From an uncultured virus (IMG/VR IMGVR_UViG_3300009151_004315) (lineage: Duplodnaviria > Heunggongvirae > Uroviricota > Caudoviricetes), in IMG/VR virus record IMGVR_UViG_3300009151_004315, positions 1 through 64,000 of that record: a stretch of DNA of 64,000 nt; one strand, given 5' to 3'. Under the pieces are notes generated by a model that had not been told where the DNA came from, did not search any database, and saw nothing but the letters and a program-made list of their open reading frames with translations. Of the stretch, positions 5,186 through 63,265 are shown piece by piece; position 1 is the first letter of the stretch; each line of letters starts with the position of its first letter. The translations under genes and the position numbers were made by a program.

Positions 5186-5956
5186 ATGGATAAAAAGTAT
5201 AAATTTAGGGGTGAAAGAATTTCTGAAGCCAAAAGAATGAAACAATCAGAATTTTTAGACAGAGCCATTGCAGTGCATGGAAGTATATATGATTATTCTA
5301 ACTCATTTTATGTGAATGCACATACCAAAATAAAAATTGGTTGTTCATACCACGGAATATTTGAACAACGTCCGCACGATCATGTTAAGGGTAAAAATGG
5401 ATGTCCGGCATGCGGTACAATTAATAGAAGAAAAAACCATTCAAAACAAGCATTTGATAAATTTTTAATATTGGCAAAAAAAATACATCAAAACAAATAT
5501 CAATACATTACTGAATCATATACCGGAATAAAAGATTTGATGGAAATAGTTTGTCCAATACATGGCGTATTTAAACAAAGTGCGGATGTTCATAAAAGAG
5601 GAAATGGTTGCCAAAGATGTGGCTCTGGTCCTATTTCAAATATGTCACGCCGGTGGCTTGATTCTTTGAATGTAATAGATCGAGAATACTGGATAATAAT
5701 TAATGGAAAAAGATATAAAGTGGATGGGTATGATATTAATTCAAATACTATTTACGAATTTTTAGGTGATTATTGGCATGGAAATCCAAAAGTACATCAT
5801 CCGGAAAAAATTAATTCTCATAATAAACATACCTTTAAGGAACTTTATGAAGGTACTATTCTAAGATTAGAAACTTTTAAAAAAGCAGGATATAATTTAA
5901 TTTTTGTATGGGAGAATGATTATTTAAACCCGCCTAACAATTCTTCCCTTGGATAA
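5186..5956 (+). CDS. Free-standing putative homing endonuclease: two DUF723-like Zn-ribbon repeats plus Vsr/PD-(D/E)XK-like nuclease domain
   Basis: Two CxxHG...CxxC repeats; VDGY...[12 protein letters not shown] nuclease motif. Opposite strand to its neighbours, with its own ATAAATA and SD. Confidence 0.7.
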
Positions 5957-8364: not shown

Positions 8365-8390
8365 TTTATTTCCTTTTGAATATTTATAGT

Positions 8391-9143
8391 TTATGGGTGC
8401 AAGGTGCTATAGGTAACTGCACCAGCGTTTGTAACTGTGAGAGCATTATTACTCGTATCAGTTATATAAGTACCAGCAGATGCAACTGCTAACAATAATT
8501 GAGTTGAAGTGCCTGTGATTGTCGCACTAGGTGAACCGTTGATATTGGCGCTTTGTGTAGCAGTTAGAGGCGTAGTTGACGGTGTAAAGTTTGAAGTATA
8601 AACTGCCAGCCCCTTAACAATTCTCATGCTGGTCATGTAACCATTGAATGGGTTATTGTTTTGATTGGCACTCCATCCAATTTCTAAACTTCTATTGGTG
8701 TTGGAATTATACACACTGGTAGAAGTCAATACCGAGATGCCACCCACATACACTGTGACTGTGCCACTGGCCCTAACCAAAGCAACATGTTGCCATATTC
8801 CTGCTGTGACAACTCCATCGGAACTACCAGGGTATGCACTGCCACTATAATAATTGAGTTTGCCATTATTGTTGAGATCAAGATTGTCACTATTGGATCC
8901 AAACCACCATAATCTTTGACTTACAGTGACTGACGTAGGATTTATCCAAGTTTCTACGGTATAATCACCGGTGCCAAAAGCAAATGCAGACCCTGCTGTA
9001 ACAGAAGAAATTACTAATTCATTATTGGCACCTGCGTTAGTTCCATTAAAAAATAAACTGCCGGTAAATGAAGAAATACTATCAGTAGTTAATGAAATGC
9101 CTGGTCCAATGTTAATTCCTCCACCAATTTGTATTCCTGCCAT
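8391..9143 (-). CDS. LamG/concanavalin A-like domain virion protein
   Basis: FGTGDYTVETWI, WQHVALVRASGTVTVYVGG and FNGYMTSMRIVKGLAVYTSNFTP motifs. Confidence 0.75.
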   Translation of the reverse strand: MAGIQIGGGINIGPGISLTTDSISSFTGSLFFNGTNAGANNELVISSVTAGSAFAFGTGDYTVETWINPTSVTVSQRLWWFGSNSDNLDLNNNGKLNYYSGSAYPGSSDGVVTAGIWQHVALVRASGTVTVYVGGISVLTSTSVYNSNTNRSLEIGWSANQNNNPFNGYMTSMRIVKGLAVYTSNFTPSTTPLTATQSANINGSPSATITGTSTQLLLAVASAGTYITDTSNNALTVTNAGAVTYSTLHP

Positions 9144-9229
9144 TTTATTTCCTTTGTTATGACTTATGCTATTTGATTAAACTTAATCAATTAAATATAT
9201 ATTTATACACAATCAAAAGGAGCATACCA

Positions 9230-26940: not shown

Positions 26941-27004
26941 AGTGTTAAGTTAGTTATATGTGCGAGTGTTACCCCGCACATTTATTTATATAAAATTTAT
27001 TATA

Positions 27005-54653: not shown

Positions 54654-54895
54654 CGTAACATAAAATGAATATAATCTTTCTCATCTGTGAATTTGAACGT
54701 AGTTTCAAATCCATCATCTTGTGTATCTTTATATTCATACGTCCACCTAGATTTTGTTCTACCAGGACCAAAAGTATCAACACACCAATCTAATGGATTA
54801 TTTTTATCTCTTATAGAACCGTCTGGTCCCATATAGTGTTTCCAATAATCCCAAGATAATAAAGCAATGTGTTGATATTTTTTCATGTGCCCCAC
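54644..54895 (-). CDS. Small hypothetical protein (FxFxxExDyxxFxLxW family)
   Basis: Paralogous motif with 14287..14487. Confidence 0.55.
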   Translation of the reverse strand: MGHMKKYQHIALLSWDYWKHYMGPDGSIRDKNNPLDWCVDTFGPGRTKSRWTYEYKDTQDDGFETTFKFTDEKDYIHFMLRWR

Positions 54896-55731
54896 TCGTT
54901 TTTGAAAAGAGGTACTTGAAGTCTATCACTGTACCGATAACCACGATTCATTGCTTCAATAGCAACATTCTTAGCATTTAAGTTATACAATGATTCTACA
55001 CCACCGCAAGGCATGAAGTATACAGGGCCTCTGAATCCACCATTACGAAATTCTAGTACAGCTTTGTCTGCTTCAATTGCATCTTCACTAGTAGCAATAA
55101 CAAACTTAAGATACACAAAGCCAATACTTTCATATTGACGAATGATGTTAGGACAAATTGCTTCACTCCACTTCTCGCCACTGATACTTAGTTTAGGACT
55201 AACACTAAATGTTAATGCATTCTTTTCTCTGTTAATCTTCCATTGTTGTAGATAGATTGATAGGTCTTGACTTAGTTCTTGTGTACCATTAGTTTCAAAA
55301 GTAATCTCTTTGAGACCTCTCATTTTTTCGTTTGAAAGTAATTCTGGATATGCTCTTTGCCATCCAAGAAGAGGTTCACCACCAGTGATAACAAGGTGCT
55401 CATCCATCCAGCGACCGTGAGGAAGGATAGTAAGAATAGAGTCAACAATAGAAACGGTACTGAGCATAGGACTAAGATGCTTAAATCTAGAGTCCCACGA
55501 GGCGTAGGAATCGCAACCTGTACTGACAAGCGGTAAGGATTTATAATCTGTATAATCTTGTGCTTTAATCGCAATAACATCTCTTTCACTACTCAATTCT
55601 CCTTTATTCATGCCGAAGCCACCACACGTAAAATTGCATCCATATGTTCTAAGGAAAATACTTGGTACTCCGATATATCGGCCTTCTCCTTGTATACTAT
55701 AAAAAAGTTCACTTACTTTTATGCTTGTCAT
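54883..55731 (-). CDS. queE: 7-carboxy-7-deazaguanine synthase (radical SAM)
   Basis: ELFYSIQGEG, FLRTYGCNFTC...CD, ITGGEP, ETNGT and VSPK. Confidence 0.92.
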   Translation of the reverse strand: MTSIKVSELFYSIQGEGRYIGVPSIFLRTYGCNFTCGGFGMNKGELSSERDVIAIKAQDYTDYKSLPLVSTGCDSYASWDSRFKHLSPMLSTVSIVDSILTILPHGRWMDEHLVITGGEPLLGWQRAYPELLSNEKMRGLKEITFETNGTQELSQDLSIYLQQWKINREKNALTFSVSPKLSISGEKWSEAICPNIIRQYESIGFVYLKFVIATSEDAIEADKAVLEFRNGGFRGPVYFMPCGGVESLYNLNAKNVAIEAMNRGYRYSDRLQVPLFKNEWGT

Positions 55732-56272
55732 TAATATGTTCTTTCAAATCATTCATTGATATATAGAGTTTTTCACAAATGAAGCCCTCTTTCTTTCGTT
55801 TACTATCGGATAAGCACCATCCCCTAATAGTTGTCTCATGTACATCGTAATATTTAGCCGCATGCCCCATTGAAGGGAATATACCATCAGGCGTAGTCAC
55901 CATCATTTTCCAATTAGGTCTATCATTGTGAATTATACGTTCAATTGAATCTAAAACTGCAGGTACCTTATAGTCTCTTTTTAAGTATTCTACTGCATTT
56001 AACAGATTTTGTAAATCATCTTGGAACTTCCCGAGAGCCATATTACAGTTGGTGCAAAGTAAACCTCTTACTTTTTTTGTAACATGACAATGATCCACTG
56101 CTAAATCCCTATTACATATATCAAGTTTATTACAAATCGCACAGCCATGATTTTGTTCTACCAACATTGCTTCGTACTGGTCGGCATTAATTCCAAAATC
56201 TTTCATCAAATCTGACCTTTTTCGGCGTTTGTTAGTTCGTTCTTTACTATTGAGTGTTTTTTGCTTAATCAT
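55709..56272 (-). mobile_element. Endonuclease VII-family (His-Me finger) putative homing endonuclease
   Basis: QNHGCAIC...LAVDHCH...VRGLLCTNCNMALG; probable DNA-binding C-terminus; own TATAAATA and AGGAG. Confidence 0.85.
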
Positions 56273-56319
56273 TATTATCTCCTTATATGTATTTATACAA
56301 GGTGACGGTAGAGTAAGAT

Positions 56320-56373
56320 TTAACCCTCTCCTTGGATGCTATAAAATAATTCTGATACTTTTAAATGATTCAT
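56320..56373 (-). pseudogene. Orphan queE 5' fragment MNHLKVSELFYSIQGEG*
   Basis: 13 consecutive residues identical to the start of 54883..55731; ATGA-coupled to the upstream gene. Confidence 0.9.
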
Positions 56374-56588
56374 TTGATTTTTAAATTGTAATTTTTTAAA
56401 ATAACTTCAGCGTATGTACCGCCACCTTGTTTATAAACACCATTAACTTGCTTTGCACAATCCCTGATTAATAGTTCAGCAAACTTTTCAATACTTTCTT
56501 CATCATCAGTTTGACCTGCGACAGATGCTCGTTTGAGCGCCCAGTCAAAACCTGCTTCTTTTGCCAGGTCTTCTATTTTTTTATTCAT
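56370..56588 (-). CDS. Small protein, EKFAEL-x-x-x-x-C family
   Basis: KIEDLAKEAG...EKFAELLIRDC. Confidence 0.6.
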   Translation of the reverse strand: MNKKIEDLAKEAGFDWALKRASVAGQTDDEESIEKFAELLIRDCAKQVNGVYKQGGGTYAEVILKNYNLKIK

Positions 56589-56591
56589 ATA

Positions 56592-56783
56592 TTACCAATG
56601 ATGTAAAGTGTTTGCTATGATGAAACAACATGTTATCACATGTAGCACCACCCAGAAAGTTTTTAGGAACAATGCGATTTTTGCTTCACCTAATGTAAGA
56701 ATAGGTACATCAGGCCTGTCATCATCGGTATTACCCATTAGATGACCGGTTGCTCTTGCCCATATTTTTTCTAAGCTATTCAT
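56592..56783 (-). CDS. Small membrane protein
   Basis: IWARATG...TM helix...HHW. Confidence 0.6.
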   Translation of the reverse strand: MNSLEKIWARATGHLMGNTDDDRPDVPILTLGEAKIALFLKTFWVVLHVITCCFIIANTLHHW

Positions 56784-57199
56784 TAAGCTACCTCGTCTTT
56801 ATTGTTGTTAGGATATTTTGCACTAGTATATCTAATAACTAATACGCTTATTGCGATAACAAATGTAGAGCCGGCTACAGCTAACATTTCAATAACATTG
56901 ATTGGCTGATGACTCATTATATCTACCATATGCCGTGTCAGTGCTGTTATTGCAATGTATAGCAGGAACCTGACAGGCATATGATTGGTCTTGAAATAAA
57001 TGCCCACCATTGCACCTATTTCCAAATAGATAAACATTAATAACAAGTCACCGACTGTTGCGTGATGTTTTTGAAACATTTCAGCGAAGGTCCAACCGGC
57101 AGCCCATACTGTTGCGGCACCGATACCAAACAATGCAAGCCTATGAAATATGTCTACTAAGGTATGTCCTACCTTATCTACCATTTCTGTTTTCAACAT
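56783..57199 (-). CDS. Phosphate-starvation-inducible PsiE-family membrane protein
   Basis: DLLLMFIYLEIGAMVGIYFKTNHMPVRFLLYIAITALTR. Confidence 0.85.
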   Translation of the reverse strand: MLKTEMVDKVGHTLVDIFHRLALFGIGAATVWAAGWTFAEMFQKHHATVGDLLLMFIYLEIGAMVGIYFKTNHMPVRFLLYIAITALTRHMVDIMSHQPINVIEMLAVAGSTFVIAISVLVIRYTSAKYPNNNKDEVA

Positions 57200-57681
57200 T
57201 ATTCAAACTCTCTATCTTCACGATGACCGCCACGTCCTGCCATGTTGCTATCAGTCTCACGTACCTCTACTCTACAGCACCATACACGTTTAGCTTCTTC
57301 GCTACCACAGTTGGGTAAGAAGATTGTGTTGATGTATTCATATAAAAAGTCAGCAATACCTTCACAACCAGTGCGTTCTACTTCTGTGATCTTTGCTAGT
57401 TTCAATCTACCTAGTTCTAATAGATGTTCACGCATTGGGTCATCTTGTGCGACTAATAATGTATGGTCAAACCATTCTTCTAGTTTATCTTTGAGTGGGC
57501 GTAGTCCACCAAAATCAGTTACCCAGTTACGGGCATCCAATGTATCAGCTTCAAACTCAAAGTGAAAACTCATAGCATAGCCATGAATTAAATTACAATG
57601 ACTGTCAGCACGCCATTGACGATATGCGACAGGACCTATTTGTCTGTATGTCTTTGTTGAAAAGAATTTTTTGTTTGCCAT
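57199..57681 (-). CDS. queD: 6-carboxytetrahydropterin synthase (QueD/PTPS)
   Basis: SHCNLIHGY, WVTDFG, FDHT and VRETDSN. Confidence 0.88.
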   Translation of the reverse strand: MANKKFFSTKTYRQIGPVAYRQWRADSHCNLIHGYAMSFHFEFEADTLDARNWVTDFGGLRPLKDKLEEWFDHTLLVAQDDPMREHLLELGRLKLAKITEVERTGCEGIADFLYEYINTIFLPNCGSEEAKRVWCCRVEVRETDSNMAGRGGHREDREFE

Positions 57682-57750: not shown

Positions 57751-58461
57751 ACTTTTATTTAACAAAAAACCCATAACCTCTTCTTTATTAAGAATTAAAT
57801 TAAATGGATCAGTTTTAATAGATTTTTCTCCTAAATATTTGAATTTTGTATTGTAGATTTTTTCCATGTCTGAATAGATAGATTCATATTTTACTTTTTT
57901 ATATTCAATATTGTGTAATATTATAGACAAATTCTTTTCCCATAATAGGTGACTATTATAAATTTCAGTTAATCCATTATTCAGACGATTAATATCAATT
58001 GTTGCAGGTTCATTGATTTCACTATTGATTCCAAATACGTTTTTTAGGTTGTTAGCATATGAGCGGGCAATCATAAAACTTAACAATTGTTCTTTAATAT
58101 CTCTTGTCAATGTGATAAATTCAAAACCTATATTTTTTAACTCTATTATTATTTTAGATAATGTTTCCTTATCATAATGATCCATCAAAAAAATTCTTAC
58201 AGTTAATGATTGGTTTATATTTGTATTTTTTAATAAATTAAGTCGTTCTTCAAATCCTTCAAATATTTTAAAGTTTGAAGGAATGCTAGCAAAATTCTTT
58301 AATCTTATATTATTGTCATCATCAGTCACATATTCACTGCGATTCCAATTTTCAAAATACTCGCCCAATTGAAAGCTTGATTTTATTTCTCCGGATAATT
58401 TTTCACACAATTGACTACCTGTTCTGGGTAAACAAATAATACATGTTCTGTTGCCGTTCAT
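57700..58461 (-). CDS. Sulfotransferase-like P-loop protein
   Basis: LPRTGS PAPS-binding-type loop, GEYF, LTRD...QLLS and VKYE. Confidence 0.6.
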   Translation of the reverse strand: MNGNRTCIICLPRTGSQLCEKLSGEIKSSFQLGEYFENWNRSEYVTDDDNNIRLKNFASIPSNFKIFEGFEERLNLLKNTNINQSLTVRIFLMDHYDKETLSKIIIELKNIGFEFITLTRDIKEQLLSFMIARSYANNLKNVFGINSEINEPATIDINRLNNGLTEIYNSHLLWEKNLSIILHNIEYKKVKYESIYSDMEKIYNTKFKYLGEKSIKTDPFNLILNKEEVMGFLLNKSSGLGVTPALQTLPPML

Positions 58462-59252
58462 TTTAATCCTAAATTTTTCCTAATTTTAGTTGCACTGATA
58501 TTATGTGTAGCATCATCAAATATTTCTTGCTCAATCTTATAACCAACATCACGACCGTATGTAATATTCACAATGTTTGGTACAATTTGAATTTCGTATT
58601 GACCTTGATATAACATATCTAAGTCACGTTTAATAAAACTTTTAACTTGTTCGATGGCAAATGGATTACTTCCTTGCCAACCTTGACAGTCACGTATTTG
58701 TATAACTACTTGCCCAGTCTTAGCAATAGCCCGTTCAAACAACTTACGATGTCCTTCATGCCATGGTTGCCAACGACCTAGCATCTGTACTGTTTCTTTC
58801 TGCTAATCAAACACTGGTCTGCGTCTATTATCTAATATGTGTGCGGCAATAAACTCACCCCACTTTTCACCTTTTTGTTCAGTAATTCTAAAGTCATATA
58901 CTTCTGGTGGGATAAATGCTTTGTTAGTATCGTCAAATCTACCTTTATCAATAGTATCAACCCATACAGTCCAATCTGCTTTAAAGTTATTACGCATTTC
59001 AACTAATGGTGCAACAAAGTCACATATAACATAATCACATTCAATCATATTATCTGCTAGTTCACGCATACGTAAACTTTGACGAACACGACCTTCTGTG
59101 CTAAAGTCCCAATCGTTATACTTTTTTCGTACATCGTCAGCATTTAGCCAACCTACTTTTTTCTTATCCGCTTGTAGGTGCTCTACAATATGTTGTGCTA
59201 TATAAGTTTTACCTGCGCCAGGCAGGCCCATTACTAATATTCTTTTAGGCAT
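58458..59252 (-). pseudogene. Adenylylsulfate-kinase-like / cytidylyltransferase-like fusion interrupted by one in-frame TAG (58803-58805)
   Basis: GLPGAGKT and LNADDVR (CysC-like) are in frame with LGRWQPWHEGH (HxGH); junction reads PVFD*QKETVQM. Confidence 0.8.
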
Positions 59253-59712
59253 TTTTGTTTTTCTCCGCTTCTGCTACACGTTTGCGTAGACTTGAACTGC
59301 TAAAACTATGGTCACGTTTGTTAAATATAACCTGTACACCACGGCCTGCACCCTCATTACGTCCGGTAAAATTCTTATCCTCATACTCTGTACCCAAAAT
59401 ACGAACATCTAACGGTAGAATCAATAACAAGTCAATTAAGTCTTGTTCAGTTTGATATACCACTACTTCATCAACATAGCGACAAGCCGCAAGTTGAATC
59501 TGTCGTTCTACAATACTTTGAATAGGTTTATTCTTAGTATCAGGTCTATCAATGGTTGGATCGGTTTGTAGCCCACAAATCAAGTAATCACAATGATTTT
59601 TTGCTTCACTTAACATAGCAACGTGACCTGCATGAAGCATATCAAATGTGCTAAAAGTAATACCAATCTTTTTACCCTGTGCTTTTAATTCTTTAATATG
59701 ATTGAAAATCAT
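59245..59712 (-). CDS. Glycerol-3-phosphate cytidylyltransferase-like (TagD family)
   Basis: FSTFDMLHAGH, KNKP and RDHSFSSSSLR. Confidence 0.85.
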   Translation of the reverse strand: MIFNHIKELKAQGKKIGITFSTFDMLHAGHVAMLSEAKNHCDYLICGLQTDPTIDRPDTKNKPIQSIVERQIQLAACRYVDEVVVYQTEQDLIDLLLILPLDVRILGTEYEDKNFTGRNEGAGRGVQVIFNKRDHSFSSSSLRKRVAEAEKNKNA

Positions 59713-59954
59713 TTTGAAAGTGTTCTCCACATTTTAGTTTGTTCATGTTCTTTTAAGAATTCATCCTCACCCGTAAATGTAGGTGCATCATTCATAATCT
59801 CATCCAATAACCATTTCAATTTATGTAAATCTTTTTTGATTTCAAATGTAGTAAATCCATCGTTATACGGACTGTGAAGTTCTACACCTGCAATGTAGAT
59901 TTGATGATGTACACTATTATAATCCATTGGTTTTTTAAATCCCATTATTTGCAA
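59709..59954 (-). CDS. Hypothetical protein
   Basis: ORF track. Confidence 0.6.
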
Positions 59955-60625
59955 CCTTTATTTGCAATCTGCAAAAACTCTTGTCTTGCGGCTGGATCTG
60001 TTTTGAATCCACCACCTAGACGGCAGGTAGTTGTACTTGAACCAGTATCTTCTACACCTCGGGCCGCAACACAATAATGCCTGGCATCAATCATTACAGC
60101 TACATCTTCTGTTTCTAGTATATAACATAGTGAATGAAAAATTTGTTCAGTTAATCGTTCTTGTATTTGCGGGCGCTTACTGAAATATTCTACTATACGG
60201 TTGATTTTACTAAGGCCTAGTACCTTATCCTTTGGTACATAAGCAACGGTAGCCAAACCCGCAATAGTAATAAAATGATGTTCACATGAACTTTGTACAT
60301 TGACATTGCGTTCAACAACCATTTCATTATATTTCATTTTATTTTCTACAGTAGTACATTTTGGAAATGCTTCATAATCTAGTCCGTAGAAAATTTCATT
60401 TACATACATCTTAGCAACACGCTTGGGTGTCTCAATTAGACTATCATCAGATAAATCTAAACCAAGATATTGCATAATAATAGTGAAGTGTTCTTCAATA
60501 CGATCAATCTTATCTTTTCTGTCTAAGTTGTTTGGCAATGTAGGAGTCTCAACTCCCATTTTGACTAAGTGCTGATGCACTTGTTGACCCAACTCTGGAT
60601 CTGTTTTTGTTTTATTATAACTCAT
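59945..60625 (-). CDS. folE: GTP cyclohydrolase I
   Basis: [29 protein letters not shown] and HYCVAARG; start at 60625. Confidence 0.95.
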
Positions 60626-61111: not shown

Positions 61112-62311
61112 TTAATATTTTGCTTCACGGGTGTGTTTGCGATAATCACTATCCATACGCAACCATTGTTGTCCGTTACCTTCTAGGATATCACAAATTC
61201 TATCGATTGTACTGTCAGTCCAATCACTAATCTTTCCTTGATTTACATGCGGTTGATGTAACATATTATATAACTTAATTGTTGCATCTTCAACACTCCA
61301 GGGCGTATACAGTCTTGTATAGTCATTCGCAAATGTTTCTGGGAAACTGCGATATGCCGGATACAATACATTGCAACCCAAACTATCTGCTTCACTGACT
61401 GTGTTACTCACCCAGTCTTGTAATGCACAATTAAACAATACTCTTGTATCATTTAATAACTCATAGTATGCGTTCTTATCTAGGTCTTGATATACTTTTA
61501 ATAGTCCACGATTTTGCATATCTTGTGTACGTTTCATGTAACTATCGTTATTGCTTTTTAGTTTACTACCGCTGAACACACAGAATTCTACACCACGATA
61601 TACACCATGACGATCCTTCTCACCGTACCGGTTATAGAATTCTTCAATCACATCCATGTAGAAGTCAGGTTGCTTTTCTTGATCCCATCTAGCACTAAAT
61701 GCAATACGCATTGTACGTTCATTGAATGGCTTGATGACATTATTTACACGGCTACGAACTTCTTCTTTGCCAAATGCTAAGCCTGAGATATTGTAGATCG
61801 GTGCCTTCCAACCCGCAATCTTCATATGCATTACCATTTCTTCATTACTAGCAAGTACACCATCAACGAATGAATCAACCATCTTTTCATAGTGACCCAT
61901 GAACTCACTCATGCCCCATACATGTACGAAATCATCCGGATCGATTGACTGAGCAAGACAACGGACAAATATACGAGGACGGAGATTAATAGGAACTTGC
62001 TTAAGTATATAAGGAAGACTTTCAATGCCCGGCTGAAACATATCTTCAAAGTATACAATATCTTCATAACTACACTCACCTTTTTTCATCATCTTTACTA
62101 GATTCATTAATTGACTCATACCAAAGTATGTACGTCCATGAGCATCTAATACTTGTCCGGTAACAATAGCTTGGTCATCACTTAATGTTTCGCCGGGAAC
62201 GATAACATAGTTAATGCCTCTACGTTTGAATACACGTTCATTCCAGTCTTGTAACTGTAGTGTGTATCTTGCTTTGTAAGGCTCTAGGCCCATATAAAAT
62301 AACTTATGCAT
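61112..62311 (-). CDS. GT-B glycosyltransferase
   Basis: FSARWDQEKQP, ALQDWVSNTVSEA and LYPAYRSFPE. Confidence 0.75.
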   Translation of the reverse strand: MHKLFYMGLEPYKARYTLQLQDWNERVFKRRGINYVIVPGETLSDDQAIVTGQVLDAHGRTYFGMSQLMNLVKMMKKGECSYEDIVYFEDMFQPGIESLPYILKQVPINLRPRIFVRCLAQSIDPDDFVHVWGMSEFMGHYEKMVDSFVDGVLASNEEMVMHMKIAGWKAPIYNISGLAFGKEEVRSRVNNVIKPFNERTMRIAFSARWDQEKQPDFYMDVIEEFYNRYGEKDRHGVYRGVEFCVFSGSKLKSNNDSYMKRTQDMQNRGLLKVYQDLDKNAYYELLNDTRVLFNCALQDWVSNTVSEADSLGCNVLYPAYRSFPETFANDYTRLYTPWSVEDATIKLYNMLHQPHVNQGKISDWTDSTIDRICDILEGNGQQWLRMDSDYRKHTREAKY

Positions 62312-63062
62312 TTTCTCTTTCTATATCTAGTTCATCACATTCTTCACCATACTGTATTTCTACAATACGACATGGTGTATCATATGGATTACTTAGTTGA
62401 TGCCAATCACCTTGTGAAATTTTTACTTGACCAAACGTTGACAATTCAATTGGAAGTAAACTGTAACCACTTGACAATTTTGTATATAGTATACACTTAC
62501 CTTCTGTAACATGCCAAAATTCACTTCGTTTAAAATGCCGTTGCATACTTAAACTTTGACCCGGCTCTACTGTTAGTTCTTTTACTTTACATCCACTTAC
62601 ATCATGTAGTATACGATAGTATCCCCACTGACGCAATGTTTTAGGTTGTTTCCATTCACGTAGTATCCAACTACTACTGTTCTTTTTGTCATCCCCACCC
62701 ACACCAAATACAAATTCTACATCATCAAATATCATTTCGGGAATGTTATCTTTAGTTCTATCTCCCCCATTAGCAAATATAATATTTGTTTTTGGGTACA
62801 TTTCTTTGACTTTGCGAATGGCATCAATGGCGGTATCATCACTATCATCAAACTCTATTACTTTATGCACTTGATGTAAATTTTCAATGATTATTTTACG
62901 TTCTTGAATAGGCATAAAAGGTTGACCTTTTTTACGGGTCAACCATGCGTCACTATTAACTCCTACTATCAGTAAGAAACCTAAATGCTTAGCGGAATTG
63001 AAATATTCAATATGGCCACTATGCAAGGGGTCAAAGCCCCCAGTGACTAACACTATCTTCAT
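62304..63062 (-). CDS. Cytidylyltransferase fused to a cupin (mannose-6-phosphate isomerase type II C-terminal-like) domain
   Basis: TGGFDPLHSGH, FANGGDR and KKNSSS; RQWG...LSMQRH..RSEFW...VEIQYG. Confidence 0.85.
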   Translation of the reverse strand: MKIVLVTGGFDPLHSGHIEYFNSAKHLGFLLIVGVNSDAWLTRKKGQPFMPIQERKIIIENLHQVHKVIEFDDSDDTAIDAIRKVKEMYPKTNIIFANGGDRTKDNIPEMIFDDVEFVFGVGGDDKKNSSSWILREWKQPKTLRQWGYYRILHDVSGCKVKELTVEPGQSLSMQRHFKRSEFWHVTEGKCILYTKLSSGYSLLPIELSTFGQVKISQGDWHQLSNPYDTPCRIVEIQYGEECDELDIERENA

Positions 63063-63265
63063 GGACGCATATCCTCTTGCCATTGATCCTTAGCCCATTT
63101 GCCGGCAATTTGTTTTTGATGTTGACGGTATGCGAAACTCCGCATGTCATACAATGATGTTTCATCAAACTTGTACCCAAAGTCCTGACAGAATTCAAGG
63201 TACTTTTCAAGATCCTCAAAAATCTGATTGATACGTGGGTTAGGTTGATATTGTTGTTTTGCCAT
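63059..63265 (-). CDS. Hypothetical protein
   Basis: ORF track; SD present. Confidence 0.6.
   Translation of the reverse strand: MAKQQYQPNPRINQIFEDLEKYLEFCQDFGYKFDETSLYDMRSFAYRQHQKQIAGKWAKDQWQEDMRP

Follow-up and report, generated by a model that had tools for sequence, protein, structure and literature searches.

The closest described parallels to the locus analyzed here, a probable homing endonuclease cassette in the start of a queE-like gene of an uncultured phage, are found in fungi. The DNA analyzed, referred to as the window, comprises 64,000 nucleotides from a 78-kb viral record assigned to the Caudoviricetes (IMG/VR IMGVR_UViG_3300009151_004315, positions 1 to 64,000), and all features of the queE locus lie on its minus strand. 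In the WHO elements of Torulaspora and Lachancea yeasts, as described by Coughlan et al. (2020; PMC7282813), fragments of the FBA1 gene start or stop at one position, which is taken as the cut site of the nuclease. In the same account, the element brings a resistant allele that forms the FBA1 end in use, the mobile unit consists of the nuclease gene together with the resistance-conferring gene end, and the duplicated FBA1 3' fragment is modelled as the second homology arm. Both the fragments and the nuclease genes degenerate once inserted, and the host gene undergoes chimeric evolution; for WHO6, both cleavage and resistance were shown experimentally (PMC7282813). A comparable arrangement was described by Beaudet et al. 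(2013; PMC3630166) for the mORF 'gene hybrids' of fungal mitochondria, which affect atp6 of Allomyces macrogynus and atp6, atp9, cox2, and nad3 of Glomus. According to that paper, an endonuclease open reading frame (ORF) arrives with a foreign gene terminus, and the native terminus persists as a duplicate matching close relatives (91% in Glomus); two terminus copies in one genome were 63.5% identical while encoding nearly the same protein.

In phages, the free-standing homing endonucleases of T4-like viruses, as described for SegB (PMC2330249) and MobE (PMC2790892) and in a review (PMC2988022), are encoded by genes that adjoin their targets, and their spread is termed 'intronless homing'. Judged by those descriptions, intronless homing and the mechanism proposed for the queE cassette have in common the spread by break repair, the co-conversion of flanks, and the protection of the host copy by sequence differences. 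SegF and SegG of T4 are also free-standing homing endonucleases. To our knowledge, the T4 seg and mob genes are flanked by intact genes and are not accompanied by a duplicated gene end, whereas the queE cassette is inserted inside a coding sequence and the replacement start is part of the element. A further phage enzyme, F-CphI of cyanophage S-PM2, is described as a homing endonuclease with a C-terminal Endo VII catalytic motif that targets psbA beside an intron site (PMC6083498). By description, F-CphI and the nuclease of the queE cassette are both phage enzymes on the Endo VII/HNH fold, but the HNH domain of the latter is N-terminal. No phage description of a start-replacing layout was found in the open-access literature, subscription journals being outside the search.

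In the window, a full-length queE-like radical SAM gene of 282 amino acids (54883..55731) begins with MTSIKVSELFYSIQGEGRY. A second, detached queE start of 17 codons, MNHLKVSELFYSIQGEG, is located upstream at 56323..56373; it reads ATG AAT CAT ... GGA GAG GGT and is closed by TAA, so that the stranded frame spans 56373..56320. The stop codon TGA of the preceding 72-amino-acid gene (up72, 56370..56588, no assigned family) overlaps the ATG of the stranded start in the arrangement ATGA. Between the two queE starts is an intact Endo VII/HNH endonuclease gene encoding 187 amino acids (55709..56272; Pfam PF02945, E 6.6e-22). It is preceded by a 50-base segment (56273..56322) that contains the TAA (56322..56320), a promoter-like TATAAATA box (56297..56290), and an AAGGAG ribosome site (56284..56279). 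The in-use queE start overlaps the 3' end of the HNH gene by 23 bases, which encode the last 7 codons and the stop codon of the nuclease, and this stop (TGA) spans codons 7-8 (AGT GAA) of queE. The stranded copy, 640 bases upstream of the in-use copy, is identical to it at 36 of 51 bases (33 of 46). The earlier note, made from these letters alone, had described a 17-codon queE start coupled by ATGA to the previous gene, a restart of queE over the 3' end of the endonuclease, and 13 shared residues encoded by partly different codons. All of this was confirmed: the shared residues KVSELFYSIQGEG are identical, and exactly the six named codon pairs differ (tca/agt, tta/ctt, agc/agt, atc/ata, gag/gaa, ggt/ggc).

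The same note had proposed a non-splicing element, and the anatomy agrees with it. A group I or II intron or an intein that carries the nuclease and is removed by splicing would fit the frequent association of phage nucleases of this kind with introns, as well as the position of the insert in a conserved motif, where introns and inteins also reside. However, the 50 bases described above are the only non-coding sequence within the insert, the stranded start is terminated by a stop codon, and a separate ribosome site and start codon serve the nuclease gene. Searches of 55300..56700 against the Rfam intron families gave no match at E up to 1, and no other credible RNA was detected there. With a transcription signal, a start codon, and a complete second copy of the conserved N-terminus all present on the cassette, splicing would also be unnecessary. 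We therefore attach practically no probability to an intron or intein at this locus.

To compare this layout with related genomes, we used 168 fetched loci (numbered with the prefix L) and four public sequencing runs. Viral contigs with queE provided 61 loci, of which four carry the HNH gene (L001, L002, L020, and L054; the first two are identical to the window), 51 lack it, and six are cut. Empty sites are well represented. In seven HNH-less loci, the small upstream gene of the window (up72) is likewise ATGA-coupled to a native queE, which begins with MSHLKV or MNHLKV, and the ...AAAATCAAATGA junction of the window recurs there; L044-46 show this coupling. The queE of HNH-less L057 begins with MNHLKVSELFYSIQGEG, matching the stranded start at 17 of 17 residues. 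These are the insert-free alleles of the MNHLKV type that the earlier note had anticipated. At the DNA level, the stranded start of the window is identical to the native starts of L044 and L012 at 48 of 51 bases and to those of L044-46 at 43 of 46. Since, in addition, the layout recurs in many independent loci, the duplicated start is not a chance match. No second copy of the queE start was found in the 125 HNH-less loci.

A second clade, comprising 80 loci related to the queE of L087, provided a further comparison. Here the nuclease was found beyond L087 only in L089, with the same sequence. The stranded start of L087/L089 is identical to native L091 and L123 at 46 of 46 bases, and the 30 bases upstream of it are identical to L091; the identity to L091 ends after GGT G (base 46). 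The in-use start of L087 matches that of the near-isogenic HNH-less L090 at 20 of 30 bases in each of the first two 30-base windows, versus 28-30 of 30 per window farther into the gene.

Both boundaries of the insert were located. On the left, alignment of the HNH-bearing loci reveals common sequence that begins with TAAAT directly after the final GGT of the stranded start, and ...TACCGTCACCTTGTATAAATACATATAAGGAG is conserved at this cassette end. On the right, the window queE is a mosaic. Bases 1-90 are 93-97% identical to HNH-linked L054 and L020 and 65-73% identical to native alleles, whereas from about base 100 the gene is 63-77% identical to L020 and L054 and 88-100% identical to HNH-less L006, L003, and L019. 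At informative sites it is of the element type at 21 of 22 positions in bases 5-73 and of the native type from base 89. A contig in run X10 joins 56323 to 55649, omitting exactly 55650..56322 (673 bases), and the 31 other letters in the gap correspond to native codons 18-27 (R-Y-M-G-V-P-S-V-F-L) on the gene strand. Similar bridging joints were found in X5 (55656/56323) and for a second time in X10 (55647/56330). Both forms are present in one run, because X10 also has an HNH-bearing contig. Joints with unknown intervening sequence and a short side below 30 letters were not used as evidence, and the X6 joint 55575-56323, despite its longer side, was likewise left aside; differences in depth between the HNH region and its flanks were not used since contig depths sum different organisms.

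From the bridging contigs and the alignments, the insert therefore corresponds to 56322..55650, consisting of 591 bases (stop codon, signals, and nuclease gene) and an 82-base replacement queE start (55650..55731). Bases 1-51 of the replacement duplicate the stranded start in other codons, and bases 52-82 replace native sequence, altering M20 to I and V25 to I. The end of the recoded tract, which the earlier note had left to be mapped, is thus placed at queE base 73-89 by the informative sites and at base 82/83 by the bridging contigs. The sequence comparisons accordingly place a 673-base cassette after queE base 51 (46 in the second clade) and represent the in-use gene as a chimera of cassette start and resident body, with the stranded start derived from the recipient and detached from its gene. 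The left crossover would usually lie just before codon 16, because the last two stub codons follow the element rather than the native gene (GTT CAT, GTT CGT etc. in the second clade). As judged from sequence, horizontal movement is demonstrated in the window, L020, and L087 lineages only.

Searches with the HNH protein added a pair of viral loci (L066/67) as well as 20 loci from metagenomes, the latter at 59-100% identity. In 18 of 18 new metagenomic HNH loci (59-89% identity), the nuclease ORF directly precedes queE and shares 14-35 bases with the start of that gene, and this HNH family occupies the same spot in every locus with a readable downstream side. We surveyed the 110 bases upstream of the conserved box in 20 HNH-bearing loci for stranded starts, or stubs, and found one next to the HNH gene in 19 of them (L080 is unclear). 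The earlier note had suggested a survey of phages for a duplicated motif beside nuclease genes, and the duplication adjoins the nuclease in most members of this family. Eleven stubs are intact, about 17 codons long, and directly precede the promoter-like box (the window, L073, L076, L077, L078, and L082-L087). Eight are decayed at the same junction: 7 codons remain in L054, the first 5 codons plus the junction in L071, L079, and L081, and about 4 codons in L020, L066, L072, and L074. L020 has, in addition, an intact outer stub, which brings the intact stubs to 12. In all of these, native-type sequence ends at base 46-51, and contig alignments to the stub end at 56323 or 56330.

Another explanation would be a tandem duplication or rearrangement that arose by chance and carries the nuclease gene as a passenger, or else an assembly artefact. 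In its favor, metagenomic contigs can be chimeric and the queD-queE region is highly variable. Against it, the identical layout appears in separate assemblies and runs, about 20 diverged loci have the same junction, and contigs in run X4 are identical to the window across both junctions. We regard this explanation as extremely doubtful.

The 12 intact stubs all differ in DNA, yet all keep K[IV][SA]ELFYS[IV]QG, and their variable sites number 5, 2, and 11 by codon position. The ratio of non-synonymous to synonymous variation (pN/pS) is 0.12-0.18 for intact stubs (66 pairs) compared to 0.16-0.20 for in-use copies. The intact stubs, which vary at synonymous sites but keep their protein sequence, were therefore coding until recently. 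Each stub is identical to its own in-use copy at 29-34 of 46 bases. Among the 125 HNH-less loci, much closer native alleles were found for several stubs: the L020 outer stub matches L018, and the L087 stub L091 and L123, at 46 of 46 bases, followed by L085 and L086 at 44 of 46 and the window and L082 at 43 of 46. The other six intact stubs reach 37-41 of 46 with their best native allele and have no close allele in the sample. We interpret the intact stubs as recently captured native starts.

An alternative is that the stranded start has been retained because it serves a separate function, either as a short leader that is translated in coupling with the upstream gene or as an operator bound by the nuclease beside its promoter. 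About 25 bases separate the end of the stub from the conserved TATAAATA box, the stub is open and ATGA-coupled in the window, and stubs have a low pN/pS, all of which favors this alternative; recent capture, however, explains the low pN/pS equally well. The spelling of the stubs tracks local native alleles, rather than a conserved element-borne sequence, and stubs have decayed by deletion in 8 of 20 loci, which makes an independent function very unlikely.

Two of the HNH-bearing loci have further features upstream. In L020 (805..2480), the outer stub, MSHLKVSELFYSIQGEV followed by a stop codon, is joined after GAGG to TATGAACGAACGA, the beginning of a six-gene cassette of small paralogous genes that lies upstream of the 4-codon remnant and the HNH gene. 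The outer stub is thereby located 2.2 kb upstream of the nuclease gene, with the six small genes in between; this looks like a second, imprecise insertion event. In L066 (2700..2745), an upstream ORF of 389 amino acids, resembling FAD oxidoreductases, ends in ...AKQISELV, unlike its homologues in L076 and L083. This end resembles queE codons 6-9 (ISEL) and may be a very short outer remnant or a chance similarity.

The spelling around the junction differs consistently between HNH-linked and native starts; together with the junctions at base 46-51 in three lineages, the differences at codons 15 and 20 are indirect hints of the predicted cleavage of native alleles and resistance of the HNH-linked ones. 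Codon 7 is TCA in 25 of 29 native alleles, 3 of 12 stubs, and none of 20 HNH-linked starts, and codon 20 is ATG in 27 of 29 native and 6 of 20 HNH-linked alleles (not applicable to stubs). Conversely, ATA at codon 13 is found in 14 of 20 HNH-linked starts, 5 of 29 native alleles, and 4 of 12 stubs, and GGA at codon 15 in 17 of 20, 5 of 29, and 2 of 12, respectively; the alleles in these counts are not phylogenetically independent. Several HNH-less loci (L032, L040, L049/L051, and the L023 group) have element-type patches only around queE bases 36-73, and L115 has the element-type start of L087 with the nuclease absent. Such alleles would arise if co-conversion took place but the nuclease was not gained, or if recombination between the two copies removed the nuclease, and they are candidate 'immune' empty sites.

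Based on the anatomy of the locus, the empty sites, the two boundaries, the recurrence on different backgrounds, and the series from fresh to decayed stubs, all read from sequence comparison, we consider it probable that the insert is a mobile cassette built around a homing endonuclease, with the first 50 bases of phage queE as its target and replacement of the gene's start as its mode of movement. The interpretation of the earlier note is supported in that those of its proposed checks that sequence can address all gave the predicted outcome. In the mechanism that we infer, a mixed infection would allow the nuclease to cut a naive queE near base 46-51, and the break would be repaired from the cassette-bearing genome. 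The right end of the break would pair with the queE body and the left end with the donor's stub upstream of the nuclease gene, the stub thus serving as a putative homology arm. The cassette would be copied in, and the recipient's own start would become the new stub. The rebuilt queE would be a chimera with a respelled, presumably resistant start that the nuclease no longer cuts, and the TATAAATA box would drive the nuclease and, through the overlap, queE.

Several observations weigh against this reading. The identity of HNH proteins correlates about equally with that of the queE body (rho 0.48) and with that of the start (rho 0.41; all HNH-bearing pairs, 17 loci), a comparison that did not separate horizontal from vertical descent, and much of the association between HNH and queE could be vertical. 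The recoding need not be a product of selection for resistance and may reflect only how deeply the donor lineage has diverged, and part of the respelling is forced because the HNH reading frame overlaps the in-use start. The TATAAATA motif is not enriched in the window (5 sites versus 9.8 expected). The phages are uncultured, with the nearest HNH relative in an isolate at 41% identity, and the HNH loci were retrieved by patterns from conserved HNH motifs, which biases the sample toward intact genes. Finally, the stub is short or deleted in 8 of 20 cassettes with the nuclease still intact. Persistence therefore does not require a long stub, and homing may not require one either.

The last observation also bears on a rival explanation, namely an ordinary free-standing intergenic homing endonuclease upstream of queE that spreads by intronless homing through long flanking homology, the stranded start being an incidental scar of imprecise repair. 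The position of the HNH gene upstream of queE is like that of the T4 seg and mob genes, those 8 cassettes have lost most of the stub, and the L020 outer stub, parted from the HNH gene by the six-gene cassette, looks imprecise. On the other hand, 11 of 20 stubs are intact, and in at least three lineages the junction at queE base 46-51 recurs beside a stub that shares 43-46 of 46 bases with a local native allele, a different one in each case. Upstream of the HNH gene, the gene content varies (up72, up63, queD, the oxidoreductase-like gene, and other small genes); long left-hand homology is therefore often absent. In view of these results we consider the free-standing explanation improbable.

The interval between queD and queE (window 56370..57199; L003-L061) is itself a variable slot that holds none, one, or several small genes, including up63, up72, paralogues with a FAELI..EC motif, and a PsiE-family membrane protein. 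The left flank of queE therefore often differs between co-occurring phages.

The nuclease ORF is open in 20 of 20 homologues (179-191 amino acids) with 55 invariant columns. These include the catalytic and zinc motifs CAIC, VDHxH, and RGLLCTNCN as well as DRPNWKM, all invariant in the 20 homologues. The Endo VII-like domain is N-terminal (residues 23-98), and the protein also matches endonuclease VII PHROGs (2e-33). A PDB sequence search returned Hpy99I (8.4e-6), covering the nuclease core only. A separate DNA-binding domain was sought in the C-terminal 88 residues, for which Pfam yielded only HTH_17 at a sub-threshold E of 0.025; the motifs DRPNWKM and TPxGxFPS are conserved among the homologues. 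A megablast search of the region against isolate phages gave no match, and tblastn of the HNH protein against the same group detected no close relative, the best being 41% identical over 82% of the protein. The window contains a second nuclease gene (5186..5956, plus strand, 256 amino acids), which matches the PHROG annotations 'HNH endonuclease' and 'endonuclease' at 1e-22 to 1e-23 and lies on the opposite strand to most window genes.

The TATAAATA box is present in 18 of 20 HNH-bearing loci, with CATAAATA in the other two, and this conservation suggests a promoter role. Four of the five window sites share their strand with 49 of the 58 long ORFs, and at least three precede a start codon. The TATAAATA motif is that of the T4-type late promoter, and the placement of the boxes is consistent with such a putative promoter in this phage. 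Scans for sigma-70-type promoters and terminators gave only chance-level results, and public RNA runs contained at most 0.05 of the sampled words. The other boxes on the coding strand are at 8381, 9200, and 26983 (minus strand). The first two are followed, at a distance of 27-70 bases, by start codons with AAAGGAAAT ribosome sites, the box at 9200 preceding a baseplate-wedge-like gene (8391..9143), and that at 26983 is located about 50 bases before an ATG without a AAAGGAAAT ribosome site.

The queE ORF matches phrog_2076, 'QueE-like radical SAM domain', over its full length (1.6e-51, residues 3-281) and is 35-45% identical to annotated phage QueE proteins. It scores 41-51 bits with the NCBIfam QueE equivalogs, whose cut-offs are 200-300, and the product is probably best called QueE-like. 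Genes for queD (57199..57681) and GTP cyclohydrolase (folE, 59945..60625) are encoded nearby on the same strand. Several cytidylyltransferase-like or heptose kinase-adenylyltransferase-like genes, together with a kinase gene, adjoin the deazaguanine genes (58458..59712, 62304..63083) and could belong to a DNA or sugar modification pathway.

Compared to the fungal elements, the queE cassette is not new in kind, being the WHO/mORF design mirrored to the 5' end of the target. As far as WHO elements are described, the likeness lies in the overall design and the proposed repair steps. WHO elements replace the 3' end of a nuclear gene, encode an intein-derived LAGLIDADG/zinc-finger nuclease, and operate in meiosis, whereas the queE cassette replaces a 5' end by means of an Endo VII/HNH enzyme in a phage. 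Since the 5' end is replaced, the queE cassette must bring a transcription signal, a ribosome site, and a start codon. Its nuclease ORF overlaps the replacement segment, unlike that of WHO elements as described, and tandem arrays of old nuclease genes, as reported for WHO, were not seen at the queE loci. In the published mORF cases, it is the C-terminus that is replaced, the enzymes are of the LAGLIDADG or GIY-YIG type, the ORF frequently continues the reading frame of the host gene, and the genome is that of an organelle; the queE cassette differs in its 5' position, its HNH/Endo VII nuclease, and its phage setting. Because the 5' end of the target gene is replaced, and by an HNH/Endo VII element, the queE cassette is not a member of the WHO or mORF family, although the design is the same.

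For phage biology, the queE cassette points to a route, independent of introns and inteins, by which a selfish nuclease gene can enter a coding motif that is essential and highly conserved, and it widens the known ways in which homing elements stay harmless. The natural snapshots collected here, from empty sites through fresh insertions and decaying stubs to nuclease-free alleles with element spelling, represent an unusually complete life cycle of such an element. They lead to precise, testable predictions, namely a cut site at queE base 46-51 and a distinction between resistant and sensitive alleles, and they identify the HNH nuclease as a candidate sequence-specific enzyme with a known natural target. 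Stubs and chimeric starts also confuse gene calling and gene trees in phage genomes. We further propose, tentatively, that phages may carry an undescribed class of 'start-swapping' homing elements, in which a nuclease gene and a replacement 5' end for its target are joined through overlap, and the stub would be a working left homology arm for precise insertion inside a coding sequence, possibly also an operator. Elements of this class may have accompanied queE across a large clade of freshwater jumbo phages, and they would drive the chimeric evolution of conserved phage gene starts generally.

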